Positions 1 to 12,434 of a DNA stretch of 12,434 nucleotides are shown here, piece after piece. Below the pieces are notes generated by a model, which worked only from the letters and a program-made list of their open reading frames with translations, had not been told where the DNA came from and did not search any database. Origin of the DNA: an uncultured Burkholderiales bacterium (lineage in GTDB: Bacteria > Pseudomonadota > Gammaproteobacteria > Burkholderiales > Burkholderiaceae_C). Both the position numbers and the translations under genes were made by a program. Positions within the stretch are counted from its first letter, which is position 1. Each line of letters begins with the position of its first letter. Location of the stretch: assembly GCA_903956845.1 (NCBI GenBank), contig CAJBOO010000238.1:1-12434 (forward strand), written 5' to 3'.

Positions 1-134
1 GCCAACTCGATCATGTCCAACGTCAGTAAATCATTGATCTTGCGGTGAAGCATGGCGGGTGAGCCGATGTGGCTCAAGCCCATGGCTTGGGTCACGTTCA
101 AAGGCTTACCTGCATGGTTTTCACTGTTGGTCAA
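1..134 (-). CDS. Partial CDS (N-terminal end only, continues past window start); possible winged-helix/HTH DNA-binding protein
   Basis: Not in the supplied track because it runs off the window. Manual minus-strand translation from TTG at complement(132..134) gives (M)TNSENHAGKPLNVTQAMGLSHIGSPAMLHRKINDLLTLDMIEL..., open to position 1. An in-frame TAA lies 8 codons upstream. An alternative ATG start is at complement(81..83). The segment LNVTQAMGLS...LHRKINDLL resembles a helix-turn-helix. Family and start codon are unverified. Confidence 0.25.
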   Translation of the reverse strand, partial: MTNSENHAGKPLNVTQAMGLSHIGSPAMLHRKINDLLTLDMIEL

Positions 135-314
135 GACTAACCATAGCGCATTTATTTAAGAAATGCTTTAACCTACATCAACCATCGGCTTTTTTCGCTA
201 ACTGTTGTCTTTGAAAAAATCAAAAAAGAACACCATTTTGAAAATGAATACCGTTGTGAACCCAGTTGGCGTGACCGTCGTGTGCCTGGGTACAAAGAAG
301 TCAGAGGGTGGTGC

Positions 315-1148
315 TCATGCCGATTGCAATGCGTCGCGTGTGCGCTGTGCCACTTGGCGTGCCGCATGCGCAAAGTCCGCTTCTGAGGATGCATACAACA
401 CCGCGCGTGACGAGTTGACAACGATGTTGCCGCTCACCCGTCCATCGGTGTGGCGCAAACCTGCTTTGACCGTGGCCGCGGCATCACCACCTTGGGCGCC
501 CACGCCCGGGATCAGCAAGGGCAGCGTCGGCGCGATGTGGCGCACGCGTTCAATCTCGGCTGGGTAGGTGGCGCCCACCACCAAACCGAGTTGACCGTTC
601 AAGTTCCAAGGCCCTTGGGCCAAACGGGCAATGTGTTCGTACAGCAAAGGTTGTCCCTCCACCGAAGCCAAGCGCTGGTTTTGCAAATCGTCGCCACCCG
701 GATTGGACGTGCGGCACAGCAAAAAAGCGCCCTTGCCATGCCGCTTCAGGTAGGGCTCAACCGAGTCAAATCCCATGAATGGCGACAAGGTCACGGCATC
801 GGCGCCATAGCGCTCGAAGGCTTCGATCGCGTATTGCTCAGCGGTGGAGCCAATGTCACCGCGCTTGGCATCCAAAATCACGGGCACATGGGGCGCGACA
901 TCGCGCATGTGTCGGATCAGTCGCTCGAGTTGGTCTTCTGCGCGGTGCGCTGCAAAGTAAGCGATTTGCGGTTTGATGGCGCAAACCAGGTCGTGGGTCG
1001 CGTCAACGATGTGGGCACAAAAGTCGTGGATCTTGGCCGCATCCTGGTGCATGGCGGCGGGGAATCGGTGGGGCTCAGGGTCCAGGCCCACACACAGCAG
1101 TGATTGGGCGCGTTGGCTGGCTTGTTGCAGCATGTCGGTGAAGGTCAT
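315..1148 (-). CDS. pyrF: Orotidine 5'-phosphate decarboxylase (type 2, long form)
   Basis: 277-aa ORF. Motifs typical of type-2 OMP decarboxylases: LCVGLDP near the N-terminus, [38 protein letters not shown]. The start ATG is at complement(1146..1148). Confidence 0.9.
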
Positions 1149-1179
1149 GCGGCAGATTGTAGAAGTCGGGGCAGGGCCT

Positions 1180-1977
1180 TCAGGCGGGGCGCACCTGTTG
1201 CATCGCCAGGCACAGGTCTGCCCAGGCTTTGGCTTTGTCGGAGGGGGTGCGCAACAAATACGTGGGGTGGTAGCTCACCACCACCGGGCGACCATGTGCC
1301 TGGTGTACCTGGCCACGCAACTTGCCCAGGGGCTGCGAAGCCCCCTCGCCGAGGGCGGGGGTCAACAAGGACTGCGCAGCAAAGCGACCCAAGGCCAAGA
1401 TCACCTTGGGCTGCAACAACTCGATTTGCCGCTGCAAGAAAGCATGGCAATGCGCGATGTCTTCGGCGCTGGGGTTGCGATTGTCATGCGGGTGGCATTT
1501 CACCGCACTGGTCACCACGGTGTGTTCTGGCCCAGGGTGTTGGGCTTGGCGTGACAAGCCCATGGCTTGCAGCATCGCGTCCAGCAACACACCCTCATCG
1601 CCCACAAAAGCATGGCCTGCTCTGTCTTCGGCGTCCGTGGGTGCGTCGCCCACGATCAACCAATCGGCGGTTTGGCCGGGCGCGGCCGAGCCGCTGGCAA
1701 ACAAGCTGTGCTGGCGACCTTGGCACAGGCCACAAGCCTGGCAAGTCTGGGCCGCATGCGACAGCGCAGCCCAATCCATCTGCGCCAAACCCTCGGGCAG
1801 GGGCGACAAGGCCACGGCAGAGGAGCGAGCGACCACAGCGGCCGCTGTGGGTGATGGCACCGCTGGCTGCACCGGCACCGCTGGCTGCACCGGCACAGGC
1901 GTGTTGGCTGGCGACCACACCCGCACGCCCATCTCAGCCAAGATGGCGCGTTGACGGGTGTCCAAGTTCAAGCTCAT
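1180..1977 (-). CDS. Uracil-DNA glycosylase, family 4 (Fe-S type) with N-terminal Pro/Ala-rich extension
   Basis: 265-aa ORF. It has the Cys cluster [10 protein letters not shown], the motif [30 protein letters not shown] (a variant of family-4 GEAPG..E...G.PFVG.AG.LL), [23 protein letters not shown] and a C-terminal YHPTYLLR. It follows rimI, a common arrangement in betaproteobacteria. Confidence 0.8.
1856..1896. repeat. Perfect 18-bp tandem repeat (about 2.3 copies) inside the UDG linker
   Basis: GGCACCGCTGGCTGCACC occurs at 1856-1873 and again at 1874-1891, followed by a partial GGCAC. It is in frame and encodes the duplicated [12 protein letters not shown] in the minus-strand protein. 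Confidence 0.9.
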
Positions 1978-1987
1978 GGGTCAAACC

Positions 1988-2461
1988 TTAACACTGCAAG
2001 CCCATGACCACCGCGTCCTCGCGTTGCTCGAGGTTGAGGGGGTAATAGTTTTTGCGCCAACCCTCTTGCACAAAACCGTGCGCTTGGTAGACAGCGATCG
2101 CCCGTTGGTTGCTGGCCCGCACCTCTAACCAAATGGTGTGGGCGTCTCGGCTGCGGGTCCAGTCGAGCAAGGCCTGCAGCATCATGCGCGCCCATCCTTG
2201 GCGTTGGTAAGCCGGGGCGACGGTGAGGTTGAGCAAATGCACCTCGTCCACCCCGCGCATGGCAACCAGGTAGCAAGCCACCTCTTCACCCACGTGCCAA
2301 ACAGGCATGTGGTAACCCGAGGCGATCGAGTCGACAAAATGACCGCGTGTCCAGGGGTGGGAATACGCACTTTGCTCGACGTGCAAGACCTGGGGCAGGT
2401 GGTCGACGTTCATCGGCACAGACGGGGGGAAGGGCGCTGATGTGCCCCACAAACGTTTCAT
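1988..2461 (-). CDS. rimI: Ribosomal-protein-alanine N-acetyltransferase (GNAT family)
   Basis: 157-aa ORF. The GNAT core is LLNLTVAPAYQRQGWARMMLQALL...LEVRASNQRAIAVYQAHGF, with an N-terminal E..AYSHPWT motif typical of RimI. The start ATG overlaps the tsaB stop in an ATGA at 2458-2461. tsaB-rimI adjacency is conserved. Confidence 0.85.
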   Translation of the reverse strand: MKRLWGTSAPFPPSVPMNVDHLPQVLHVEQSAYSHPWTRGHFVDSIASGYHMPVWHVGEEVACYLVAMRGVDEVHLLNLTVAPAYQRQGWARMMLQALLDWTRSRDAHTIWLEVRASNQRAIAVYQAHGFVQEGWRKNYYPLNLEQREDAVVMGLQC

Positions 2462-3162
2462 GCAGACGCGGCTTTCACTGCAGCGCGTTCGAGGGTGGTC
2501 AAGGCCACTTGGTCGCGCACGTATACCGGCAGGGCCAGTTCGGGAGGCACGGCCTCACCGCGCTGCCAAGCCAAGTCAGCCAAACGCAACATGGCGCTGG
2601 CGGTTGGCCATTGCTCAAGCCCTTGCACGCCCGCTCCCAGAAGGTGTTGCAAACCTTCTGCGTGAGCGGCTTGTGCATTGCCCGCCAAGACCACCGATGT
2701 GGCTGACCATTCGGCAGGCAACGCCAAGGCAGCCGCGGTGGTGAGCATGGGCGCTTGCACCACTTGCCAAGCCTGACCCTCCCAGGCACAGGCCGAGGCA
2801 TACACCTGCCCCATGCGCGCATCCATCACGCTCATGACGCGCGTGCCTTGCCCACGCGCGGCTTCGGCCACGCACATCAAGGTGTCGATCGGCAGCAGCG
2901 GCAGGTTGGCACCCAAGGCCAAACCTTGCGCCACGGCACACGCGGTGCGCAAGCCAGTGAACGCGCCGGGGCCTTGGCCAAACGCGATGGCATCCAGTTG
3001 CTGCAATGCCATGCCGGCTTGCGACAGCAAACCCATGATGGCGGGGATCAGGCTGGCAGAGGACTGCTGGCCGCCCACACCGTCATGGGTCCATACCTGT
3101 CCTTGGGCTTGCAGCGCCAAGCTCATGCGCTCAGTGCTGGTGTCAATGGCCAAGCACTTCAT
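2458..3162 (-). CDS. tsaB: tRNA N6-threonylcarbamoyladenosine (t6A) biosynthesis protein TsaB
   Basis: The track ORF 2458..3615 is 385 aa, but the recognisable TsaB begins at residue 152. That sequence is MKCLAIDTSTERMSLAL...IAFGQGPGAFTGLRTACAVAQGLALG...PLLPIDTL. The ATG at complement(3160..3162) overlaps the upstream EamA stop (ATGA). The upstream 151 aa are antisense to the EamA gene and are rejected. Confidence 0.85.
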   Translation of the reverse strand: MKCLAIDTSTERMSLALQAQGQVWTHDGVGGQQSSASLIPAIMGLLSQAGMALQQLDAIAFGQGPGAFTGLRTACAVAQGLALGANLPLLPIDTLMCVAEAARGQGTRVMSVMDARMGQVYASACAWEGQAWQVVQAPMLTTAAALALPAEWSATSVVLAGNAQAAHAEGLQHLLGAGVQGLEQWPTASAMLRLADLAWQRGEAVPPELALPVYVRDQVALTTLERAAVKAASA

Positions 3163-4139
3163 GCGCTCACCTTGGCCAAGGGCGCTTTGCGCACCCCAAA
3201 CAAAATGCCGGCGGTCACCAGCGACAAGCCCAAGAGCAAATGCATGCCCAAGGGTTCGCCCAAAAACACCACCGCCCCCAGCGCCGACAAGCCCGGCACG
3301 AGAGAGGTGATCATGGTCGAGCGCACCGGGCCAAAGTAACGGATCATTTGGGTGAAGGTGATGCCCGAGATGACCACCGAGCCGCCGCCTTGGAACGCTG
3401 CTTGGAACAACAACTCGCTGGCGGGGGCACTGAGCAAATGGCTGGGGATGGCCCCGCTCACGGCCAGCAGGCTGTAGACAGGCACAAAGCTGAAAAAGGC
3501 AAAACACGTGATCGCGATGGTGGCGGGCACGGCTTGCAGGCCATATCGGCGGCTGATCACGCTGTAGGTAGACCAACACAAACTCGCGCTCAAAAAGAAC
3601 AGATCGCCCATCCACACGCTGCCACCATCGAAGGCGTGCAACAAACTGCTGCCGCCGACCAACATGCCGCCACTGACGATGAAGGCCAGGCCTGCCAATC
3701 GGTTGCCATGCAGACGCTCACCCAACAAGCCCAAGGCCAGCAGGCTGGTCCACACTGGCAAAAAGCCAGGCATCAACACCGAGGCGTGCGCGGCAGGTGC
3801 AAAGAAGAAACCGCTGTAACTGAGCACCGCGTAGGCCAAGCCGCCGAAAAAACCGATCCGCAGCGTCACGCCCCAGGGCAAGGGCGACAGCGACCACATC
3901 GAGCCGCTGTGTTCGCCGCGCAGGCGCGCTTGTCGGTTGAGCCAAAACCCCCAGGGCAGCAACACCAGGCTGGCGCCGACGATGCGCGCCCAGGCGATGT
4001 CCAAGGGAAGCAAATGGCGCGACGCCGAGGCTCGGGCGATGACGATGAAGGCGCTCCAAATCAAGACAGTGATGAGCGCAGCGAGCAGGCCCACGGTTCG
4101 AGGCGAGAGTTGCCGCAGGCGCTTTAAGGGTGAATGCAT
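3159..4139 (-). CDS. EamA/DMT-superfamily permease (about 10 TM)
   Basis: Hydrophobic ORF with two EamA-like halves (LLAALITVLIWSAFIVIARAS...; LFFLSASLCWSTYSVISRR...). The start was chosen at MHSPLKRLRQ (ATG complement 4137..4139). The longer 4181 start would overlap the divergent dacB region. The substrate is unknown. Confidence 0.7.
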   Translation of the reverse strand: MHSPLKRLRQLSPRTVGLLAALITVLIWSAFIVIARASASRHLLPLDIAWARIVGASLVLLPWGFWLNRQARLRGEHSGSMWSLSPLPWGVTLRIGFFGGLAYAVLSYSGFFFAPAAHASVLMPGFLPVWTSLLALGLLGERLHGNRLAGLAFIVSGGMLVGGSSLLHAFDGGSVWMGDLFFLSASLCWSTYSVISRRYGLQAVPATIAITCFAFFSFVPVYSLLAVSGAIPSHLLSAPASELLFQAAFQGGGSVVISGITFTQMIRYFGPVRSTMITSLVPGLSALGAVVFLGEPLGMHLLLGLSLVTAGILFGVRKAPLAKVSA

Positions 4140-4183
4140 CCAGGGATTATCTGTGGTGCAGCCGTGGGTTTCATAATGCACAG

Positions 4184-5644
4184 ATGTTTGCTCTGTCGCG
4201 CGTCACCCTGTTGCAAGCCGTTGGCTTGGGGCCCCCCACTCGTCGCCTGTGGGCCACCCGCTTGGCATGGCTTGCGCTGTGTTGGAGCACCCACACGTGG
4301 GCTCAAGCCACCCTGGGCGCCTTGCCCCCGGCGGTCGAAGACGCCTTGCAACGCGCCAAACTGCCGCGCGAGGCTTTGAGTGTCGTGGTCTTGCCCGTGG
4401 GCGCGGCAGGCCCTGCGCGTTTATCGCACCAAGCCGAGGCAGTGCGCAACCCGGCGTCCCTCATGAAGTTGGTCACCACCAGCGCTGCTTTGGACTTGCT
4501 CGGCCCCGCCTTTCAATGGCGCACCCCCGTGTTTGTGGACGGCAAGTTGCGCGACGGTGTGTTGCAAGGCCATGTGTATGTGCAAGGCAGTGGTGACCCC
4601 AAGCTGGGGGTCGAGCAACTGTGGCTGCTGATGCGCAGGTTGCATGGCTTGGGCATTCGCCAGATACAGGGCGACATCGTGCTCGACCGCAGTGCGTTCA
4701 GCTTGCCCCCGCATGACCCCGCTGGCTTTGATGGAGAGCCACTGCGCCCGTACAACGCTGCCCCTGATGCTTTTTTGGTGAACTTCAAATCCCTGTCCCT
4801 GCAGTTCGTACCCGACCCAGCCAACAAGCTCGCGCATGTGCATGTCGAGCCGCCCTTGGCTGGCGTGCAGGTGCAAAGCACCGTGCCTTTGATGGGCGGC
4901 GACTGCAGCGATTACCGCGCGGCCTTGCGTGCCGAATGGGGCAACCCATTGCAAGTGCGGTTCATGGGGGGGTTCCCGGCGAGTTGCAGCGAGAAGCTGT
5001 GGCCGGTGGCGTATGCCGACCCTGAACGCTTTGCCGCGCGTGCCGTGCAGGGCATGTGGCAACACGTGGGCGGCCAACTCAATGGCAGTGTGCGCGATGG
5101 TGTGGTGCCTGCGGGTTTGAAGCCCGTGTTCCTGGTGGAGTCACCCACTTTGGGCGAGGTGGTGCGCGACATCAACAAGTTCAGCAACAACGTCATGGCC
5201 GAGCAGGTGTTCTTGAGCTTGGCTTTGCAAAAGCGCGGTCAAGCCACGCCCTCTGTGGCCAAAGAGGTACTCGAGGTTTGGTGGCGTGAACGTCTGGGCA
5301 CCGAACCTCCCTTGCTCGACAAAGGCTCAGGTTTGAGCAGAGACCAGCGCATCAGCGCGCAAGCCTTGGCCCACTTGTTGCAATGGGACTGGCGACAAGC
5401 CTTCATGCCTGAGTTGATCGCTTCCTTGCCCTTGACGGGGGTGGACGGCACCTTGAAGCGCAGCAAGAGCAGTGCGAATGCGCACCTGAAGACGGGCAGC
5501 TTGAAGGACGCGATGGGCATCGCCGGTTATGTGGATGGGCAAAACGGGCAACGTTTTGTGTTGGTGGCGATGGTCAACCACGCCAACGCCAACCAAGCCA
5601 GACCGGTGATGGATGCTTTGATCGACTGGACCGCTGGGCGCTGA
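4184..5644 (+). CDS. dacB: D-alanyl-D-alanine carboxypeptidase/endopeptidase, PBP4 (peptidase S13)
   Basis: It has the active-site SxxK (NPASLMKLVTTSAAL), the SNN motif (INKFSNNVMAEQVF) and KTG (HLKTGSL), with an N-terminal signal-like segment ...LAWLALCWSTHTWAQA. The start is ambiguous: ATG 4130 in the track, ATG 4184 preferred (MFALSRV...), and later non-ATG starts are possible. Confidence 0.85.
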   Translation: MFALSRVTLLQAVGLGPPTRRLWATRLAWLALCWSTHTWAQATLGALPPAVEDALQRAKLPREALSVVVLPVGAAGPARLSHQAEAVRNPASLMKLVTTSAALDLLGPAFQWRTPVFVDGKLRDGVLQGHVYVQGSGDPKLGVEQLWLLMRRLHGLGIRQIQGDIVLDRSAFSLPPHDPAGFDGEPLRPYNAAPDAFLVNFKSLSLQFVPDPANKLAHVHVEPPLAGVQVQSTVPLMGGDCSDYRAALRAEWGNPLQVRFMGGFPASCSEKLWPVAYADPERFAARAVQGMWQHVGGQLNGSVRDGVVPAGLKPVFLVESPTLGEVVRDINKFSNNVMAEQVFLSLALQKRGQATPSVAKEVLEVWWRERLGTEPPLLDKGSGLSRDQRISAQALAHLLQWDWRQAFMPELIASLPLTGVDGTLKRSKSSANAHLKTGSLKDAMGIAGYVDGQNGQRFVLVAMVNHANANQARPVMDALIDWTAGR

Positions 5645-5691
5645 CCGACGGTCATCCCCACTTCTTTTGCGTGCACTATTTTGCATAAACT

Positions 5692-5715
5692 GGTTGTGCA
5701 TTGTGTTGCACAACC
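5692..5715. promoter_or_regulatory. Perfect 9-bp inverted repeat (GGTTGTGCA-N6-TGCACAACC) in the dacB/xmoC intergenic region; operator or non-canonical terminator hairpin
   Basis: Read directly: 5692-5700 GGTTGTGCA, loop TTGTGT, 5707-5715 TGCACAACC. No T-run follows on either strand, so it is not a classical intrinsic terminator. It is surrounded by further TTGCA/GTGCA words (GTGCAC 5671-5676, TTGCAT 5681-5686). Confidence 0.4.
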
Positions 5716-5780
5716 CACAAGATGGGCATTCAGACAAGAAATCAGATGAAAAACCCTTCATGAACTAGGTATTAACACCA

Positions 5781-5809
5781 TTGTTCAGGGGGTCTTTCTT
5801 TTCAAGAAT
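5781..5809 (+). promoter_or_regulatory. Candidate sigma70-type promoter for the monooxygenase operon (TTGTTC-N17-AAGAAT)
   Basis: -35-like TTGTTC at 5781-5786, a 17-nt spacer, and -10-like AAGAAT at 5804-5809, about 55 nt upstream of the xmoC ATG. This is pattern matching only, and other AT-rich hexamers in 5660-5830 are equally possible. Confidence 0.2.
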
Positions 5810-5851
5810 GCGAATGTCCGTTGCCTGGCAATGGTTTTTCATACCGCACCT

Positions 5852-5857
5852 AAGGAG
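5852..5857 (+). promoter_or_regulatory. Shine-Dalgarno sequence (AAGGAG) of xmoC
   Basis: AAGGAG lies 7 nt upstream of the ATG at 5865. It is the strongest SD in the window and fits a first gene of an operon. Confidence 0.75.
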
Positions 5858-5864
5858 TCATTAG

Positions 5865-6644
5865 ATGTCCACCTTGAGCAGCCGAGATCTCCATCTCAAC
5901 CCGACCACCGACACCACGTCGCGTTTCACCCTGAGTTATGTTTGGTTCGCCGTCGCCATGACCGTGTTGACAGGCGTGTATGTGTCTTACCGCGTCTACC
6001 AACAGATGTACGGCATGTCTGCCGGCCTGGACTCCACCGAGCCGATCTTCCAAGACATTTGGATGCGTTTGTTTTGGATCCAACTGCCCGTTTTGTTCGG
6101 CATCGTCGCCTTGATCCAGGTTTATCTGTTTGTCACACGTGACCGCAACATCGACGCGATCACCCCTGAGGTCGAACTCAAACGCTATTTCGCGCTCACC
6201 ATGTGGTTGGTGGTGTACACCTTCACCTTCTATTGGATTGGCAGCTTTTTCGGCGAAGGCGATGGCAATTGGCACCAAACCGTGCTGCGCGACACGCCCA
6301 TCACGCCCAGCCATGTGGTGCTGTTTTACGCCTGCATCCCGCTGTACCTGATGTTTGGCATTGGCAGCTTCGTCTATGCCATGACGCGCATCCCCGCGTT
6401 CTGCAAAGGCATCTCTTTGATGCACGTGTTCGCGGTGGTGGGTCCATTCCTTATCCTGCCTAACTTGGGCTACAACGAATGGGGCCATGCCTACTGGTTG
6501 ACCGAAGAAATCTTCTCTCATCCATTGCATTGGGGCTTTGTGGTGTTGGGCTGGAACGCCTTGTCGCTGGCTGGCGTCTTGATGCAAATCATCTCGCGTT
6601 TTCGTGATTTGATGCCCATCGTTTTCAAGAACGAAACCGCCTGA
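5865..6644 (+). CDS. xmoC: Copper membrane monooxygenase subunit C (PmoC/AmoC family; methane/ammonia/hydrocarbon monooxygenase)
   Basis: 259-aa polytopic membrane ORF with family signatures FYWIGSFFGEGDGNWHQTVLRDTPITPSHVVLFY and NEWGHAYWLTEEIFSHPLHWGFVVLGW. Asp133/His137/His150 have the spacing D-x3-H-x12-H, identical to M. capsulatus Bath PmoC Asp156/His160/His173. Asn204/His208/His222 have the spacing N-x3-H-x13-H, as in Asn227/His231/His245. Confidence 0.92.
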   Translation: MSTLSSRDLHLNPTTDTTSRFTLSYVWFAVAMTVLTGVYVSYRVYQQMYGMSAGLDSTEPIFQDIWMRLFWIQLPVLFGIVALIQVYLFVTRDRNIDAITPEVELKRYFALTMWLVVYTFTFYWIGSFFGEGDGNWHQTVLRDTPITPSHVVLFYACIPLYLMFGIGSFVYAMTRIPAFCKGISLMHVFAVVGPFLILPNLGYNEWGHAYWLTEEIFSHPLHWGFVVLGWNALSLAGVLMQIISRFRDLMPIVFKNETA

Positions 6645-6670
6645 ACGGCCTCCTCACCTAGGAATTCACC

Positions 6671-7522
6671 ATGAACACAGAAACACTGCAACACCCCCGG
6701 GGTGCTGCGGCAGGACAAACGCACGCCCACGATACCGTGGAAAGCGTATCAGGTCTGTCGCCCAAGGCCCTGCATTTCTCCCGCGTCTTCGAACTCTTTG
6801 TGGTCGCGGCCATCATCATGCTGTTTGCTGGCGCCATCCATTTGCATGTGCTGCTGTTGGCGGGCGACTGGGACATGTTCTTGGATTGGAAAGACCGCCA
6901 GTACTGGCCGCTGCTCACGCCCGTGGTGATGATCATGTTCCCAGCCGCTTTGCAGGGCATTTTCTGGACCTACTTCAGGCTGCCCATCGGTGCCACTGTC
7001 GGCGCGACTTGTTTGATGTTGGCCGTGTCGATATCACGACCCGCATCGTTCATGTGGTGGACCGACTACCCACTCAACCTGGTGTTGCCCGCGCAAATGA
7101 TTGCCAGTGCCATCGTCTTGGATGTGTTCCTGCTGGTGTTTCGCAATGCCTTGTTCACCGCGATCTTCGGTGGCTTTGCGTTCGCATTTTTGTTCTACCC
7201 TTCCAATTACGCCATCTTCGCGCCGTTTTACGTGCCAGTCAGCCACCAAGGCATGATGGCTTCCATGGCCGACATGATTGGCTACGTCTATCCGCGATCA
7301 GCGACGCCCGAGTACATCCGCATCATTGAACGCGGCACGCTGCGCACCTTTGGTGACTCGGCCAGTTGGGTGTCGGCCTTGTTTGGTGGCTTCATCTGCA
7401 TCTTCATGCACTACGCCTGGTGGTATTTGGGCATTGCCATGTCCTCCATGAAATTCCTGCCCAACAACGCCAAAGTCATGGCCTTGATGGGAACCAAACC
7501 AGATGCCAAAGCCGGTGCTTGA
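6671..7522 (+). CDS. xmoA: Copper membrane monooxygenase subunit A (PmoA/AmoA family)
   Basis: 283-aa membrane ORF with signatures GDWDMFLDWKDRQYWP, FRLPIGAT, FYPSNY and TPEYIRIIERGTLRTFG, which are near-universal PmoA/AmoA motifs. By eye against my recollection of M. capsulatus PmoA, the N-terminus is about 19 aa longer, with a His/Ala-rich GQTHAHD, and the C-terminal tail is also longer. A weak SD (AGGAA) precedes the ATG. Confidence 0.92.
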   Translation: MNTETLQHPRGAAAGQTHAHDTVESVSGLSPKALHFSRVFELFVVAAIIMLFAGAIHLHVLLLAGDWDMFLDWKDRQYWPLLTPVVMIMFPAALQGIFWTYFRLPIGATVGATCLMLAVSISRPASFMWWTDYPLNLVLPAQMIASAIVLDVFLLVFRNALFTAIFGGFAFAFLFYPSNYAIFAPFYVPVSHQGMMASMADMIGYVYPRSATPEYIRIIERGTLRTFGDSASWVSALFGGFICIFMHYAWWYLGIAMSSMKFLPNNAKVMALMGTKPDAKAGA

Positions 7523-7568
7523 GCACCCAACCTTCAAGGGGAAAATTGTGCTGTTGATTCAAAAAACA

Positions 7569-8807
7569 ATGAAGCAGTTCGCGCTTTGGCTGGGTTTGGC
7601 ATTGGTGGCGGGTGTCGCCACCGAATCCGCCTGGGCCCATGGCGAGCGTTCACAAGAACCATACCTGCGCACCCGCACCGTGCAGTATTACGACGTGCAC
7701 TACGACAAACAAACCGTCAAGGTCAACGAAGAGTTCACCTCGATTGGCAAGTTTCGTTTGATGGAAGACTGGCCCGATGCCGTGAGCCTGCCAGAAACAG
7801 TGTTTTTGGCCGCTTATGCACCCGGCCCCATGATCACGCGCGTGGAAAGCTACCTCAATGGCGTGCCTGCGCGCCAATCGTTTTCCAAGCTGGAATTGGG
7901 CCGTGATTACGAATTCAAATTGGTCATGAAGGGGCGTGTGCCTGGGCGACACCACATCCATCCCTTGTTGTCCGTCGAGGGCTCAGGCCCCTTGGTCGGT
8001 CCGGGTCAATGGATTGAAGTCACTGGCAACAAAGCCGATTACGTGATGCCGGTCACCACCATGAACGGTTTGAAAATCGACAACATCGAGTTTTATGGCA
8101 CGGCACGTGCGCTGAAATGGTATGGCGTTTGGATTGCGTTGGCTGCCTTTTGGTTGCTGTTCTGGTTGGTCCGCCCCTTGCTGTTGCCGCGCTGGATTGC
8201 TTTGAACAAAGGCCGTGAAGACGTGCTGATCACCAGCCGCGACATCACCGTGGGTGTGGTCTTGGGGGTGGTGGTGGTGGCCATCAGTTTCGGTGGATAC
8301 ATCTACGCCAACAAAGAGTACCCCTATGTGGTGCCTTTGCAGGCTGGTACCAACAAAGTCGACCCCTTGCCCTTGCCCAAGAGCGATGTGAAAGTCGTGG
8401 TCACCAAAGCCACCTATGACGTGCCTGGGCGCGCCATGTATGTCACAGCCCGCATGACCAACAACGGCCCTGAAGCGGTCTCCATTTTGGAGTTCGCCAC
8501 CGCCAACCTGCGTTTTGTCAACTTGCAAGCGCCCGGCGCTGACAAGGTCATCTCGCCAGACTATCCGCGCGACTTGGTGGCACGCGCTGGCATGGGGTTG
8601 ACCGACCAGAAACCCTTGATGCCGGGCGAAACCCGTGAAATCAAATTCGAAGCCAGTGACGCCATGTGGGAAGTCGAGCGCTTGGTCAGCTTCTTGACCG
8701 ACGTGGACTCCAAATTCGGTGGTTTGCTGTTCTTCGTCGACAAGTCGGGCAACCGCATGATGACCGAAATTGGCGGCCCCATCCTGCCCACCTTCACGGC
8801 GCTTTGA
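7569..8807 (+). CDS. xmoB: Copper membrane monooxygenase subunit B (PmoB/AmoB family), periplasmic cupredoxin subunit with signal peptide
   Basis: The signal peptide MKQFALWLGLALVAGVATESAWA is followed by mature HGERSQEPYLRTRTVQYYD (compare the PmoB HGEKSQ N-terminus). The HxH ligand pair is in PGRHHIHPLLSVEGSGPLVGPGQWIEV. There are two TM helices (WYGVWIALAAFWLLFWLV; ITVGVVLGVVVVAISFGGYIY) and a C-terminal cupredoxin domain (ATYDVPGRAMYVTARMTNNG...EFATANLRFVN). Alternative starts are GTG 7548 (preceded by AAGGGG) or the track ATG 7503. Confidence 0.9.
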   Translation: MKQFALWLGLALVAGVATESAWAHGERSQEPYLRTRTVQYYDVHYDKQTVKVNEEFTSIGKFRLMEDWPDAVSLPETVFLAAYAPGPMITRVESYLNGVPARQSFSKLELGRDYEFKLVMKGRVPGRHHIHPLLSVEGSGPLVGPGQWIEVTGNKADYVMPVTTMNGLKIDNIEFYGTARALKWYGVWIALAAFWLLFWLVRPLLLPRWIALNKGREDVLITSRDITVGVVLGVVVVAISFGGYIYANKEYPYVVPLQAGTNKVDPLPLPKSDVKVVVTKATYDVPGRAMYVTARMTNNGPEAVSILEFATANLRFVNLQAPGADKVISPDYPRDLVARAGMGLTDQKPLMPGETREIKFEASDAMWEVERLVSFLTDVDSKFGGLLFFVDKSGNRMMTEIGGPILPTFTAL

Positions 8808-8808
8808 C

Positions 8809-9384
8809 ATGTCAATCAAACACCTGTTGTTGACTGGGTGCCTGTGGCTGAGCGCCACAGGTGCTTGGGCGCACGGTGGCTTGTCCATGGACCAAGACAT
8901 GTGCAAGCTCACCGTCGGCCCTCACATGATGCATTTCGCGGGCTACCAAGAAGACGCGCAACGCACCGAGTTTTGTGAAGACATTCCGCACAACGGGCCG
9001 ACCGTCATCGTGCTCGATGTGGTGGACTTGGCGCTGCGTGATTTGCCCATCGAATTTCGCATCGTTCGCAAAACCGACGGCCCCTTGGAGGCAGCGCCTG
9101 AGGTCTTCAAACTCGCGCCTGCGGTTTATCCCAAGGGCACGGTGTTGATTCGCCACGATTTCATAGACGATGGCGACTATGTCGGCATGGTCTATGCGGG
9201 CGCTGACCGCAAGTATGCGTCGGTGTTTCCTTTCTCGGTGGGCAATCCCCGCGTGCCATATTGGAAATACACCTTGGGCTTGGTGGCTTTGCTGTTGCTC
9301 GCGGTGGCGGGCCTTCAGGTCGGCCGCCAACGGTTGCAAAGAGACGTGGCCATGCAAAGCCCCAACGACACGCAAGGGACTTGA
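8809..9384 (+). CDS. pmoD: PmoD/AmoD/AmoE-like periplasmic copper protein with C-terminal membrane anchor
   Basis: The ATG at 8809 lies 1 nt after the xmoB stop; the track ORF started earlier, at 8770. The signal peptide MSIKHLLLTGCLWLSATGAWA is followed by HGG. A C-x7-M-x-H motif (CKLTVGPHMMH, nt 8902-8934) matches, as I recall it, the CuA-forming motif described for PmoD. There is a beta-rich periplasmic domain of about 150 aa, then a single C-terminal TM (YTLGLVALLLLAVAGLQVG) followed by RQRLQR. Its position directly after subunit B matches amoCAB-amoE/D and pmoCAB-pmoD loci. Confidence 0.6.
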   Translation: MSIKHLLLTGCLWLSATGAWAHGGLSMDQDMCKLTVGPHMMHFAGYQEDAQRTEFCEDIPHNGPTVIVLDVVDLALRDLPIEFRIVRKTDGPLEAAPEVFKLAPAVYPKGTVLIRHDFIDDGDYVGMVYAGADRKYASVFPFSVGNPRVPYWKYTLGLVALLLLAVAGLQVGRQRLQRDVAMQSPNDTQGT

Positions 9385-9386
9385 AC

Positions 9387-9749
9387 ATGTGCGCGGGGTG
9401 GCGCTGGTGGGGTTTGTGCATGGTGGGCTTGCCTGTGTGGGCAGGGGCCCACGCACACTTGCTGGGCACTGAGCCCCCCAGCAACGCCCTCATCAGTCAA
9501 TCACCCCAGCAACTGCGCTTGCGGTTTTCTGAACCGATTGAGCAACAGTTCGTGCGCATCCAGGTCATGGCGGATGCCAAACCGCTGCCGCTGAATCCAG
9601 CCAACATGCAGTGGGAAGCTTCCGCCAAAACCCTGGTGGTCAACCTGCCCGCCCACCAAGCCAGCAGTTACCAAGTGCAGTGGTCCATCTTGGCCAAAGA
9701 TGGACACGCTGGGAAAGGGCAATACACCTTCAAAGTCAAGTCACCTTAG
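9387..9749 (+). CDS. copC: Periplasmic copper-binding protein CopC (Cu(II)-site-only type)
   Basis: The ATG at 9387 lies 2 nt after the pmoD-like stop, with AAGGGA as SD. The signal peptide ...GLPVWAGA is followed by a mature HAHLLGTEP N-terminus (His1 of the CopC Cu(II) site). The C-terminal W.ILAKDGHAGKGQYTFKV carries the conserved D-x-H. A Met-rich Cu(I) loop is absent. Confidence 0.85.
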   Translation: MCAGWRWWGLCMVGLPVWAGAHAHLLGTEPPSNALISQSPQQLRLRFSEPIEQQFVRIQVMADAKPLPLNPANMQWEASAKTLVVNLPAHQASSYQVQWSILAKDGHAGKGQYTFKVKSP

Positions 9750-9751
9750 CC

Positions 9752-11638
9752 GTGGATCCCATCCCTGTCCTGCGCGGTGTTCAAACTGCCCTGATGGCAT
9801 GGGCGTTTGGGCTGTTGTTCACCTCATGGCTTGGTTCACCCACACCGCGTCAAATGACGGCGCGCCGACTGGCATGGTGGCTGACTTGGGCGGCATGGCT
9901 GGTTGCACTGGCCCGGCTGGCCGACATGGCTTGGCATCTCTCGTCATTGAGCGAGGCTGAGCCCAGCGTTGGACTGGTGGCGCAGACTTATGTCGGTCAG
10001 GTGTTATTGACCCAGGTGGTTTGTCTGTCCCTGGTGCTGGTCTCGATATGGCAGGCGCGTGCGGTCAAACTCGGTCTGTGTGGGATGGTGTTGGCCATGC
10101 TGTGCACCGCCTTGGCCGGTCACGTCACGGCGGCTGCCGAGGGTTGGCGGCAAATCGTGGTGTCGCTCACACATGTGTTGCTCGCGCAGTTGTGGCTTGC
10201 AGGCGTGTGGGGTCTGTGGTGGCAAAGCCGGCGCAGCGACGAGGCGGTCGAGTCTTGGCGTCAATCCTTGGCGCGCTTTTCCAAGCTGGCCTTGCCAGGC
10301 ATGCTGCTGCTCTTGCTGTCAGGGCTGGGCTTGGCGTATTGGACTGTGGGCAGTTGGCCGGCTTTGCTGGCCACGGCGTATGGGCAACAGTTGCTCATCA
10401 AATCAGGGTTGGTGGTGGGTGTCTTGGTGTGTGCGTGGCAATTGCGCCAATGGTTGGTTAGGCCAAGCGACACAGGCAACCTGGGTCGTGCATGGCTGAG
10501 CAGTGAGAGCAGTGTGGCCTTGGCGGTGTTGTTGATGGCCAGTGTGATGGCGGCCACCGTGCCGGCGGCGCACGACACCATCGCGTGGCCATTCGCATTT
10601 CGTTGGGCCCCAGTGTTGGCTTGGCGGCAAGACCCGATAGGCACAGGCCAAAGCTTGGCGTGGGCAGCGGGCTGGTGTGTGCTGGGGGGCGTTTGCTGGG
10701 CCATCTGGCGTCGCGGCCATCGGCAGCGTGCACGCGGGGCTTTGGTCGCAGGCATCGTGGGTGGGTTGGTCGTGGCTTTACCGGCCACCAGCATTTCCGC
10801 TTACCCAACCACTTACATGCATTCGTCGGCGCGTTTGGATGCGGCATCTGTCTCGGCCGGCGAACAGCTCTATGGTCAGCACTGCTTGGCCTGCCATGGC
10901 GTGCACGGGCATGGCGATGGCCCGGTGGCGGCACTGAACCGACTCAAACCCGCCAACCTGACCGAGCCCCATGTCAGTTGGCACACCCATGGTGACATGT
11001 TTTGGTGGCTCAGCCACGGCAAAGGACCCATGCCAGGCTTTGCCGATGTCTTGTCAATCGACGAACGTTGGCACCTGATCAATTGGTTGATCGCGATGTC
11101 TTTGGGATACGAAGCCCGCACGCTCACCAGCACACCTTCGCCCTTCAACCCCTGGTTGCCCAGCATCGATTTCCGTTTTCAAATGGACAACAACCAATTC
11201 ATGTCCTTGTCTGAGTGGCGCGGCTTGCATGCGGTGCATTTGGTCATCGTCAACCATGAAAGCCAATTGCAGCGCGTGCGTGACTTGTTGCAAGACATGA
11301 AGGGTTTTCCGGCGCAACTGGTGATCGTCAGCCGGCCCGCATGGTTGAAGGACTTGGTCAAAGGCCCGTGCGAGGCTATTTTGGTGAGCGACCCGCAAGG
11401 CGAGATCGCACAAGCGTGGGCGAACTACCGCCGAAGCTTTGCTGCACCCGATTTGCTGAATGAAGAAACCCAGGTGCCACGCATGGAGTTTTTGATCGAT
11501 CGGTACGGCTTTGTGCGCGCACGCTGGCGCTCAGACGAGTCGCCCTCGGCCTTGTCTGTGAGCGAACTCAAAGCGGTTTACGACAGCTTGTCTGTGGAAG
11601 GTGAAATCAAATCCGCAGCGATACATCAACATGACTGA
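9752..11638 (+). CDS. copD: CopD-family membrane protein fused to a periplasmic class-I cytochrome c domain and a C-terminal Cys-less thioredoxin/redoxin-fold domain
   Basis: The likely start is GTG 9752, 2 nt after the copC stop, giving (M)DPIPVLRG...; the alternative is ATG 9794. About 10 predicted TM helices carry CopD-like LAGHV...SLTHVLLAQLWLAGVWGL. A positively charged loop RRGHRQRAR lies between the last two helices. Next comes heme motif CLACH (nt 10883-10897) with downstream GPMPGF as the likely Met ligand. The C-terminal segment of about 160 aa (FMSLSEWRGLHAVHLVIVNHES...ILVSDPQGEIAQAW...MEFLIDRYGFVRARW) has an AhpC/TSA/TlpA-like pattern but no Cys at the catalytic position. Confidence 0.75.
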   Translation: MDPIPVLRGVQTALMAWAFGLLFTSWLGSPTPRQMTARRLAWWLTWAAWLVALARLADMAWHLSSLSEAEPSVGLVAQTYVGQVLLTQVVCLSLVLVSIWQARAVKLGLCGMVLAMLCTALAGHVTAAAEGWRQIVVSLTHVLLAQLWLAGVWGLWWQSRRSDEAVESWRQSLARFSKLALPGMLLLLLSGLGLAYWTVGSWPALLATAYGQQLLIKSGLVVGVLVCAWQLRQWLVRPSDTGNLGRAWLSSESSVALAVLLMASVMAATVPAAHDTIAWPFAFRWAPVLAWRQDPIGTGQSLAWAAGWCVLGGVCWAIWRRGHRQRARGALVAGIVGGLVVALPATSISAYPTTYMHSSARLDAASVSAGEQLYGQHCLACHGVHGHGDGPVAALNRLKPANLTEPHVSWHTHGDMFWWLSHGKGPMPGFADVLSIDERWHLINWLIAMSLGYEARTLTSTPSPFNPWLPSIDFRFQMDNNQFMSLSEWRGLHAVHLVIVNHESQLQRVRDLLQDMKGFPAQLVIVSRPAWLKDLVKGPCEAILVSDPQGEIAQAWANYRRSFAAPDLLNEETQVPRMEFLIDRYGFVRARWRSDESPSALSVSELKAVYDSLSVEGEIKSAAIHQHD

Positions 11639-12434
11639 ACGCGCTTCCAACCTGTGGATGCAGCGAGGGCAATGGCTGATCGCCGCCTTGGCCGTGAGCG
11701 GTTTTTTGTACCTGGTGGCGCAAAGTTGGCTCAAACCACCGTTGCCCGCAGCGGCAGCCTCGCTGACCCCCTTGCCTGAAGGCTGTGCCCCTGGCTTGAC
11801 GGGTCAGCCCGGGCGACACATGGATGTGCAGACCCCCCATGGCTTGCGCTACTCGGTGGTGGCCCCCAGCAACTACCAGCCCACGCAACGCCACGGTTTG
11901 TTGATGATGTACCCACCCGCAGGTTTTTCCAACGACCTGGCAGAGCGCTATTACCGTTTGAGCGAAGAAGCCAATCGCCATGGGTATGTCGTGGTGTTCA
12001 GTGACGCCATCCCCTTGTCCGCACGAGCGTTGCGCCTGCAAAGCGAGGTCGTGCCCGATGTCGTGGCGCACTGGTGCATCGATCCCGAGCGGGTGGTGTT
12101 TGCGGGGCATTCGGATGGTGGGAGTGTGACCACGGGCTTGACGGTGCGTGCATCGGTCTCGCCGCCACCCACCCGCATCGTGTCGAGTGCCGCGGGCATC
12201 ACAGCGCAAGACTTGCAGCAAGAGCGATGCCCAGCACCTTTGCATGTCACGGTGTTGCACAACCCCAAGGACCAGTTGTTTCCGGGCTATGGCGAGGGTG
12301 TGGTCACGTGGTGGGGGCAGTGCATGCAATGCACCGAGCAAGTGCAAACCGAGCCCTCAGGATGTGTGGTGCGCCAGTGCGCGCAAGGCAAGGTGTTGCG
12401 GCACTGTGTGACTTCCGAGCCGCATGTGGTCTGG
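11631..12434 (+). CDS. Membrane-anchored alpha/beta-hydrolase (esterase / PHB-depolymerase-like family), partial, continues beyond window end
   Basis: Absent from the track because it has no stop in the window. My manual translation from ATG 11631, which overlaps the copD-fusion stop by 8 nt, is open for all 268 codons. It reads MTERASNLWMQRGQWLIAALAVSGFLYLVAQSW (TM anchor)...RHGLLMMYPPAGFS...HGYVVVFSD...IDPERVVFAGHSDGGSVT (G-x-S-x-G nucleophile elbow)...VTVLHNPKDQLFP...SEPHVVW. The 246-aa minus-strand ORF 11607..12347 is its antisense shadow. Confidence 0.5.
   Translation, partial: MTERASNLWMQRGQWLIAALAVSGFLYLVAQSWLKPPLPAAAASLTPLPEGCAPGLTGQPGRHMDVQTPHGLRYSVVAPSNYQPTQRHGLLMMYPPAGFSNDLAERYYRLSEEANRHGYVVVFSDAIPLSARALRLQSEVVPDVVAHWCIDPERVVFAGHSDGGSVTTGLTVRASVSPPPTRIVSSAAGITAQDLQQERCPAPLHVTVLHNPKDQLFPGYGEGVVTWWGQCMQCTEQVQTEPSGCVVRQCAQGKVLRHCVTSEPHVVW

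Follow-up and report, generated by a model that had tools for sequence, protein, structure and literature searches.

A copper membrane monooxygenase operon of an uncultured Burkholderiales bacterium with copper-handling accessory genes and a probable co-travelling serine hydrolase gene

The aerobic oxidation of methane, ammonia and short-chain hydrocarbons begins with a reaction catalysed by copper membrane monooxygenases (CuMMOs), enzymes that perform poorly once purified. Here we describe a 12,434-nt stretch of DNA (the window) from an uncultured Burkholderiales bacterium (GenBank assembly GCA_903956845.1, contig CAJBOO010000238.1, positions 1 to 12,434 of the forward strand), in which positions 5865-12434 hold a cassette of seven plus-strand genes: xmoC, xmoA, xmoB, a pmoD-like gene, copC, a copD fusion and a hydrolase gene. 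We read this region as one CuMMO (XmoCAB) operon with copper-handling accessory genes and a hydrolase gene that travels with CuMMOs, and assign a probability of about 75% to this reading. The first six genes are an extended CuMMO operon of an already known kind. The novelty rests in the seventh, the hydrolase, which represents a small family that has no Pfam model and is kept beside CuMMO clusters.

The hydrolase family and its association with CuMMO genes

The window contains 268 of the approximately 280 codons of the hydrolase gene, and the full-length orthologue in the related locus L001 has 280 amino acids (aa) and is 96% identical. The product has an alpha/beta-hydrolase fold with a GxSxG motif and a Ser-Asp-His triad. 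Its nucleophile elbow, GHSDG(G), is formed by residues 159-163 (positions 12105-12119), and S161, D214, H265 and seven Cys residues are invariant in 37 aligned sequences, with an eighth Cys near-invariant; such a Cys pattern is expected of a disulfide-bonded exported enzyme. The AlphaFold model (pLDDT 94) has an N-terminal helix at residues 6-33, and some relatives, judged by eye, carry lipobox-like N-termini in place of this membrane helix. From these features we predict a catalytically competent serine hydrolase that, once exported, stays tethered to the inner membrane on its outer face.

Foldseek placed the hydrolase model closest to polyhydroxybutyrate (PHB) depolymerase and to feruloyl/acetyl-xylan esterases (E=2e-11 to 8DAJ and 9BYU). 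The fold, GxSxG and the Ser-Asp-His triad are common to the window protein and hydrolases of these types (8DAJ, 9BYU, 8JH8, 9J07, 3WYD), but the window family differs from them by its N-terminal anchor, its eight conserved Cys and its CuMMO-linked context. No Pfam model matched the window protein, and none of the 37 aligned members reached any gathering cutoff; Esterase_PHB matched 4 of the 37 below its cutoff (best E=0.042), and the NCBIfam model e_dPHAscl_type1 covered only the elbow of the window protein, with a score of 31.8 vs. a cutoff of 150. Relatives are named ‘hypothetical protein’ by NCBI and ‘PHB depolymerase’ or ‘esterase’ by JGI. An exhaustive profile search among 1.84 billion representatives returned 133 clusters at E<=1e-30. 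Without a Pfam or TIGRFAM model of its own, the family is missed by neighbourhood surveys built on such models, and no mention of a CuMMO-linked esterase or hydrolase was found in the literature searched, which did not cover Rochman et al. 2020.

Related loci, designated here by L numbers, were gathered via homologues of the CopD fusion, via genome and metagenome scans with hydrolase alignments (17 sequences for the genome scan) and via further hydrolase relatives, and the seven window proteins served as queries against all of them. The relative P0347 lies on a contig of 1.3 kb and contributed no genomic context. The identical seven-gene order was found in 13 further loci (L001, L003, L004, L005, L007, L009, L010, L011, L013, L015, L022, L023, L024), in which XmoB identity to the window protein goes from 94% down to 50%, and three truncated contigs (L002, L025, L045) carry the 3′ part of the arrangement. 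Named carriers are Comamonadaceae metagenome-assembled genomes (MAGs), a Betaproteobacteria MAG (isolate WB5_2A_047), a Limnohabitans MAG from deep Lake Baikal and a Burkholderiales MAG. Synteny of the accessory genes with xmoCAB in homologous loci, on which a preliminary description of the window had staked its proposed seven-gene module, is thus borne out.

The hydrolase gene also occurs with CuMMO genes in other arrangements. In two Nevskiales MAGs (L020 and L021; Sinimarinibacterium and Panacagrimonas) it precedes xmoCAB-pmoD-copC-copD on the same strand, and in L046 it and merR-xmoCAB-pmoD-copC-copD are transcribed away from each other. In a Methylococcaceae MAG and two metagenome contigs (L019, L029, L030) it follows a pmoD-like gene, at a spacing of 17 nt in L019, with xmoCAB not detected on the available sequence. 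Taken over the 27 informative loci, the window included, the hydrolase adjoins CuMMO cluster genes in 20, in three different arrangements and over XmoB identities of 37-94%; three loci have it next to a PmoD-family gene only, and the remaining four have no cassette gene nearby, L018 being a locus where none was detected near the hydrolase. Hydrolase identity tracks XmoB identity across loci that are not phylogenetically independent (Spearman 0.85, n=16). The hydrolase that the preliminary description had regarded as an addition to the operon is real and conserved. Fourteen further loci from the metagenome scan (L031-L044) were discarded as relatives: they matched at the nucleophile-elbow region only, as generic hydrolases.

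The cassette occupies the same chromosomal site in the window, L001 and L004, with pyrF, UDG, rimI, tsaB, EamA and PBP4-type (Peptidase_S13) genes on one side and, in L001 and L004, Sua5, purK and purE on the other; in L003 it lies between entirely different neighbours. A recent horizontal acquisition of the cassette was considered and set aside, as its composition gives no sign of it: the GC content at third codon positions is 0.70-0.76 in the seven genes and 0.69-0.79 in the flanks. At four-fold degenerate sites the window and L004 are 0.71-0.78 identical in xmoA, xmoB and pmoD, 0.52-0.54 in the flanking housekeeping genes and 0.41-0.55 in copC, copD and the hydrolase gene, and protein identities split alike when the window is compared with L004 and L010 (XmoA 99% vs. 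CopC 55%). This split between the 5′ and 3′ halves could reflect strong codon-level constraint on highly expressed genes, or a 5′ half that lineages have exchanged more recently. One locus with a full cassette of proteobacterial type, L015 (CAZZMV010000048.1), is deposited as ‘uncultured Bifidobacterium sp.’ and is most likely a mis-binned contig.

Extended operons of the types pmoCAB-pmoD-copC-copD(-PCuAC) and amoCAB-amoE-amoD-copC-copD have been described before (Fisher et al. 2018, PMC6189053). The amo cluster of betaproteobacterial ammonia-oxidising bacteria (beta-AOB; amoCAB-amoE/orf4-amoD/orf5-copC-copD; NE2064-NE2057, Nmul_A2759-) has the same order of CAB, PmoD-family, CopC and CopD-fusion genes as the window. 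It differs in carrying two PmoD genes instead of one, and in what follows copD, namely NE2057 and Nmul_A2759, which encode secreted hypothetical proteins of about 185 aa and not hydrolases (PMC6189053), vs. the serine hydrolase of about 280 aa in the window; the nearest relatives of the window cassette are moreover Comamonadaceae-type MAGs and not known nitrifiers. Judged by these relatives, the host is most likely an uncultured bacterium of the Comamonadaceae/Burkholderiales from fresh water. The alphaproteobacterial methanotroph pmo operon has, as the window does, a single Cx7MxH...C PmoD directly after pmoB, followed by copC and copD. That operon ends in PCuAC, whereas the 12,434 bases of the window hold no PCuAC gene and the hydrolase gene overlaps copD instead; the window XmoCAB is no closer to alphaproteobacterial pMMO (particulate methane monooxygenase) than to ammonia monooxygenase (AMO). 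The cassette of L005 (GCA_964491825.1) likewise ends in PCuAC, with a PCu(A)C copper chaperone gene (Pfam 42.5 bits) at 12772-13296 that follows the hydrolase gene as the eighth of the cassette.

Against this background, two of the three differences from known operons that the preliminary description had named did not survive. A single D/E-type gene is no peculiarity, since one PmoD is the norm in alphaproteobacterial pmo operons (PMC6189053) and likewise in gammaproteobacterial amo operons, and the tri-domain CopD protein, thought to set the window apart from ammonia oxidisers, shares its architecture with NE2058 and Nmul_A2760. NE2058 of Nitrosomonas europaea (715 aa, 10 transmembrane (TM) helices, CopD and Cytochrome_CBB3) and Nmul_A2760 of Nitrosospira multiformis (702 aa, CopD, Cytochrome_CBB3 and AhpC-TSA) both lie directly after copC in the amo cluster of their genome (PMC6189053). 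As the fusion and the single PmoD are both known elsewhere, the hydrolase is the sole remaining difference. The large CopD::cytochrome c::peroxiredoxin-fold protein is a standard component of amo-type operons that has seldom been discussed.

Cassette layout, monooxygenase subunits and accessory proteins

The coordinates and junctions of the cassette, read directly off the window sequence, are collected in Table 1.

Table 1. Cassette genes, domains of the CopD fusion and leader region in the window.
Feature	Coordinates	Strand	Description
Leader	5645..5864	+	220 bp; AAGGAG Shine-Dalgarno at 5852-5857
xmoC	ATG 5865, TGA 6642-6644	+	259 aa, CuMMO subunit C
xmoA	ATG 6671, TGA 7520-7522	+	283 aa, CuMMO subunit A; 26 nt after xmoC
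xmoB	ATG 7569, TGA 8805-8807	+	412 aa precursor, CuMMO subunit B; 46 nt after xmoA
pmoD-like/amoD-family gene	ATG 8809, TGA 9382-9384	+	191 aa; 1 nt after xmoB (TGAcATG)
copC	ATG 9387, TAG 9747-9749	+	120 aa; 2 nt after pmoD-like gene
copD fusion	GTG 9752, TGA 11636-11638	+	2 nt after copC
copD part 1: CopD-type membrane domain	9752..10789	+	residues 1-346, 10 predicted TM helices
copD part 2: monohaem class-I cytochrome c	10829..11101	+	residues ~360-450; haem motif CLACH 10883-10897
copD part 3: cysteine-less peroxiredoxin (AhpC/TSA)-fold domain	11144..11638 incl. stop	+	residues ~465-628
Hydrolase	ATG 11631 to window end 12434	+	8-nt overlap with copD (ATGACTGA); 3′ end cut off

The gene positions, all five gaps and the 8-nt overlap given in the preliminary description agree with this reading, and so do its seven gene identities, on which Pfam/NCBIfam models, the PDB match of the PmoD-like protein and AlphaFold folds concur. 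Its AT-rich gap upstream of xmoC corresponds to the leader (GC 0.44 vs. 0.60 for the window), and its remark that only xmoC has a strong Shine-Dalgarno sequence fits the calculated anti-Shine-Dalgarno duplex energy of -8.6 kcal/mol, the weak exceptions being copC (-5.0; AAGGGA) and xmoA (-4.2; AGGA); pairing is about 0 kcal/mol for xmoB, pmoD, copD and the hydrolase gene. For xmoB an alternative in-frame ATG at 7503, inside xmoA, was used by the mechanical open reading frame (ORF) call. We prefer the start at 7569, with which the precursor has a signal peptide of textbook form up to AWA|H, and residue 1 of mature AmoB in the solved structures aligns to that His. The GTG start of copD is supported by homologues that align from residue 1.

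Junctions taken from gene calls in L001, L003 and L004 are equally tight, the 8-nt copD/hydrolase overlap included. A consensus scan of the window found no sigma-70-like promoter inside the cassette (2.2 expected) and no enrichment of terminator-like sites (9 vs. 9.5 expected), which is weak negative evidence; the cassette of L001 was likewise without promoter-like sites or terminator enrichment in such a scan, and an Rfam scan of the whole window returned no RNA families. A convergent Sua5 gene follows the hydrolase gene in L001 and L004, which argues for termination of the operon after the hydrolase gene. The four accessory genes, whose products are exported or face the periplasm, lie so close together that they would most likely be translated by coupling from one mRNA that starts in the 220-bp leader.

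The leader is the probable promoter/operator region of the operon, and two boxes in it are invariant or near-invariant in nine loci, among them L003 with its unrelated flanks. Box 1 (5671-5686) is of the TGCA-N8-TGCA type with the consensus ATGCAATATAnTGCAT. Box 2 (5746-5778) consists of ATGAA-N6-TTCAT followed by CTAGGTATTAACAC, with the consensus ATGAAAAACCCTTCAT and then CTAGGTATTTACAC. Both are likely operator and promoter elements. The scan gave no consensus sigma-70 site in the leader, and two other candidates were rejected: a sigma-54-like TGGCA-N..-TTTCA noticed by eye at 5827-5842, whose TGGCA is unconserved in L001 and other loci, and, as a conserved operator, a perfect 9-bp inverted repeat at 5692-5715 (GGTTGTGCA-N6-TGCACAACC), the segment of which occurs only in the window and L001 and is therefore lineage-specific. 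No regulator gene adjoins the operon in the window. Related operons are preceded by genes for a Crp-family (L007) or a MerR-family (L046) regulator.

The first three products are homologous to PmoC/AmoC, PmoA/AmoA and PmoB/AmoB and are encoded in the C-A-B order of CuMMOs, with Pfam scores far over the cutoffs (XmoC, AmoC 294.5 bits; XmoA, AMO 269 bits; XmoB, Monooxygenase_B 456.4 bits). At the sequence level, XmoC, XmoA and XmoB were shown to be intact, with all predicted ligands of the CuB, CuC and CuD sites conserved. XmoB has a signal peptide, and its mature N-terminus, His24, aligns to residue 1 of mature AmoB; this His and the HxH motif H129/H131 are the CuB ligands. In XmoC the ligands of CuC (D133/H137/H150) and CuD (N204/H208/H222) have canonical spacing.

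The product of the fourth gene matched no Pfam model and aligned with the cupredoxin-like domain of PmoD (PDB 6CPD_A, E=1.7e-17) over residues 30-133. It begins with a signal peptide and is anchored in the membrane towards its C-terminus (TM helix at approximately 149-167). Its motif C32-KLTVGPH-M40-M41-H42...C56 fits both Cx7MxH and Cx8MH; nine homologues all retain C32, H42 and C56, and the Met of the motif varies, as in the homologous cassettes of L007 and L020. Cx7MxH...C or Cx8MH together with two invariant Cys defines the in-operon, CuA-forming PmoD class (Fisher et al. 2018, PMC6189053), and by its motif the window protein belongs to this class. CopC was recognised by the Pfam CopC model (69.8 bits, cutoff 23.3) and scored 81.9 with the NCBIfam model copper_CopC, under its equivalog cutoff of 95; it has a His right after the signal peptide and a D105-G-H107 motif.

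For the CopD fusion, Pfam gave CopD (57.5 bits, cutoff 32.1) and Cytochrome_CBB3 (43.7 bits), and the AlphaFold model, built with 57 homologues, has a pLDDT of 92 and 10 long helices in the CopD domain. Invariant in the 57 homologues are H124, H141, W148, H274 and W279 in the helices of the CopD domain and C378, C381, H382 and M427 of the cytochrome c domain, the latter resembling cytochrome c552 (PDB 9vr0, E=1.3e-14; c552 target TM-score 0.81 with Foldseek). The C-terminal domain shares its fold with AhpE and Bcp peroxiredoxins (1XXU, 3DRN, 3HJP; Foldseek E from 6e-4, target TM-score approximately 0.6). Pfam AhpC-TSA is sub-threshold for the window protein (E=0.09), and the homologues P0056 and P0064 exceed its cutoff. 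The ‘redoxin’ of the preliminary description thus holds as a fold but not as thiol chemistry: unlike AhpE/Bcp peroxiredoxins, all 106 aligned family members (the window protein and 105 homologues) lack the peroxidatic Cys of the PxxxT/SxxC motif, so that the domain cannot be a thiol peroxidase. Its sole Cys in the window, C540, is present in 24 of the 106. What is conserved across the fusion family instead is a C-terminal His-x-His (11612-11635), with H625 near-invariant, which may form a copper-binding tail.

Taken together, the accessory proteins could work as follows. CopC would capture periplasmic Cu(II), and the 10-helix CopD domain would move copper across or into the membrane. The fused cytochrome c would give an electron that either reduces Cu(II) to Cu(I) ahead of transport or goes to PmoD or the enzyme, and the cysteine-less peroxiredoxin-fold domain with its HxH tail would act as a docking or metal-binding module and not as a peroxidase. 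PmoD would aid copper-dependent activity of the enzyme, as in methanotrophs (Methylosinus).

The preliminary description had suggested a self-contained cassette with possible electron delivery. Such a cassette would be redox-self-sufficient if electrons passed from the CopD cytochrome c to the CuA of PmoD and on to the copper site of XmoCAB. This chain is compatible with the scheme above, and the operon does encode both a haem c domain, in which CxxCH and Met are invariant, and a PmoD bearing a CuA motif, the two of them periplasmic; in cytochrome c oxidase, electrons enter from cytochrome c by way of CuA. To our knowledge, neither the physiological reductant nor the helper proteins of CuMMOs are known, and the missing reductant counts in favour of such a chain. 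We nevertheless consider it unlikely. Contact between these proteins would have to be assumed, the Met of the PmoD motif varies between cassettes, and the cassette encodes no reductant for the cytochrome, which is fused to a copper transporter, so that a role as a cupric reductase fits at least equally well. The same fusion moreover occurs in L008 without any CuMMO.

The substrate of the monooxygenase

Measured against solved structures, AMO and pMMO lie at about the same distance from the three subunits, XmoA and XmoB being marginally nearest to AMO: the best PDB matches of XmoA are AMO (E=2e-66) and pMMO (E=3e-63), the best solved-structure match of XmoB is an AMO and that of XmoC a pMMO subunit. 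We favour a short-chain alkane or alkene over ammonia as the putative substrate, because no hao or cycAB genes are in view, neither in the window nor within 10 kb of the cassette in L001, L003 and L004, and because of the genes that accompany two related loci, L006 and L007.

In L006 (Betaproteobacteria MAG GCA_016183615.1, 1-12000) the accessory trio pmoD-copC-copD::cytc directly follows genes resembling those of coenzyme-M biosynthesis (ComA, two lyases of the aspartase/fumarase family and a pyridoxal-phosphate enzyme), together with a coenzyme A (CoA) ligase, an aldehyde dehydrogenase and a pyridine-nucleotide disulfide oxidoreductase; xmoCAB and the hydrolase gene are absent within 10 kb. 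This context suggests alkene/epoxide metabolism. In L007 (GCA_945900965.1; flanks at 1424-4684 and 13191-20720) the divergent seven-gene cassette has upstream of it genes for a fused acyl-CoA mutase of the IcmF type and for a Crp-family regulator, and downstream of it genes for a TetR regulator, a second alpha/beta-hydrolase, a tautomerase, an acetyl-CoA hydrolase/transferase, an acyl-CoA synthetase and an ABC transporter, which would fit short-chain alkane or acid metabolism. Related betaproteobacterial CuMMOs were reportedly enriched on C2-C4 alkanes by Rochman et al. (2020, ISME J 14:714), and the alkane-utilising Betaproteobacteria of that work (Rhodoferax, Polaromonas, Zoogloeaceae) are said to be Burkholderiales hosts that carry xmoCAB distinct from the amoCAB of AOB.

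The cassette might alternatively be an AMO operon, from a betaproteobacterium that nitrifies or co-oxidises ammonia and has gone unrecognised as such, with accessory genes serving AMO just as in Nitrosomonas and Nitrosospira. The NCBIfam equivalog models lend this some weight, since AmoC_BACT (342.1 bits, cutoff 319) and AmoB_BACT (512.6 bits, cutoff 336) recognise XmoC and XmoB and AmoA_BACT falls just 5.5 bits short on XmoA (284.5 bits, cutoff 290). The AMO matches of XmoA and XmoB and the amo-type CopD fusion point the same way, as does the name ‘bacterial ammonia monooxygenase, subunit AmoA’, which NCBI gives to XmoA relatives of 74-77% identity (P0200 and P0212, from Burkholderiaceae and Methylibium MAGs). 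Yet pMMO matches XmoA nearly as well and XmoC better, hao and cycAB are missing from the surroundings just described, beta-AOB have a pair of PmoD paralogues (amoE and amoD) and lack the hydrolase, and coenzyme-M biosynthesis and acyl-CoA mutase genes adjoin the related loci L006 and L007. We regard an AMO operon as quite improbable. Automatic ‘bacterial ammonia monooxygenase’ labels on such Burkholderiales genes call for caution in nitrogen-cycle surveys, where labels given in the absence of hao/cycAB evidence may inflate nitrifier counts.

The role of the hydrolase and its significance

Returning to the reading of the region as one CuMMO operon with a co-travelling hydrolase gene, several observations weigh against it. 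In the Beijerinckiaceae MAG USCa_MF (L016) the hydrolase gene is solitary, beside gyrA among housekeeping genes and free of CuMMO genes within 10 kb, and a ‘Methylocella sp.’ MAG (L017) and L026 have an ORF layout like that of L016; linkage to CuMMO is therefore not obligatory. The beta-AOB amo operons and L006 carry the fusion without the hydrolase, as does L008. A distant family member, P0441 (E=1e-48, GHSNG elbow), is encoded in a beta-oxidation-like cluster, and the structural neighbours of the hydrolase are just 13-19% identical. Furthermore, the XmoC and XmoB scores over the bacterial-AMO equivalog cutoffs are compatible with an ammonia substrate, and co-transcription and translational coupling are deduced from gene spacing alone.

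On the strength of the solitary genes, the relative in a fatty-acid-type cluster and the canonical amo operons that do without it, the hydrolase could be taken for a passenger, a general periplasmic esterase with no functional tie to the monooxygenase, but this is the least probable of the explanations considered, given its place beside CuMMO genes in most informative loci and in three orientations or positions, an overlap with copD that recurs in L001, L003 and L004, a pairing with pmoD-like genes that survives where xmoCAB is not nearby, and a family very small for a general esterase.

For the co-travelling hydrolase we propose that it works in the same periplasmic/membrane compartment as the CuMMO, where it would be an active serine esterase at the periplasmic face of the membrane. 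Its activity is most likely that of a carboxyl-esterase on a small ester, perhaps one related to the chemistry of the enzyme, or on membrane lipid beside the complex. The recurring pair of PmoD and hydrolase indicates that PmoD may be its closest functional partner. Tentatively, and with clearly less confidence than in the linkage itself, the hydrolase might be an unrecognised dedicated accessory of CuMMOs or PmoD partners, a serine esterase tethered to the membrane on the periplasmic side that the enzyme would need for its assembly, its lipid environment, its repair or the removal of by-products. Such a dedicated role would span freshwater Comamonadaceae, other Burkholderiales, Nevskiales, a Methylococcaceae-type lineage and the MAG labelled USC-alpha (USCa_MF).

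A side observation concerns the position that follows the CopD fusion in other operons. In L046 (GCA_041603255.1) the fusion gene is followed at 695-1189 by a gene for a 164-aa protein with no Pfam match, in the same position as the approximately 185-aa NE2057 and Nmul_A2759, to which it is likened by position only. It may represent another unrecognised accessory family.

If the hydrolase is indeed a dedicated accessory, it would be one ‘missing component’ that could explain the poor performance of isolated CuMMOs. To surveys of gene neighbourhoods based on Pfam/TIGRFAM the family is invisible. Judged from its genomic contexts, a small unnamed hydrolase family that keeps its place at the side of CuMMO through several rearrangements would be a concrete candidate for a helper function.

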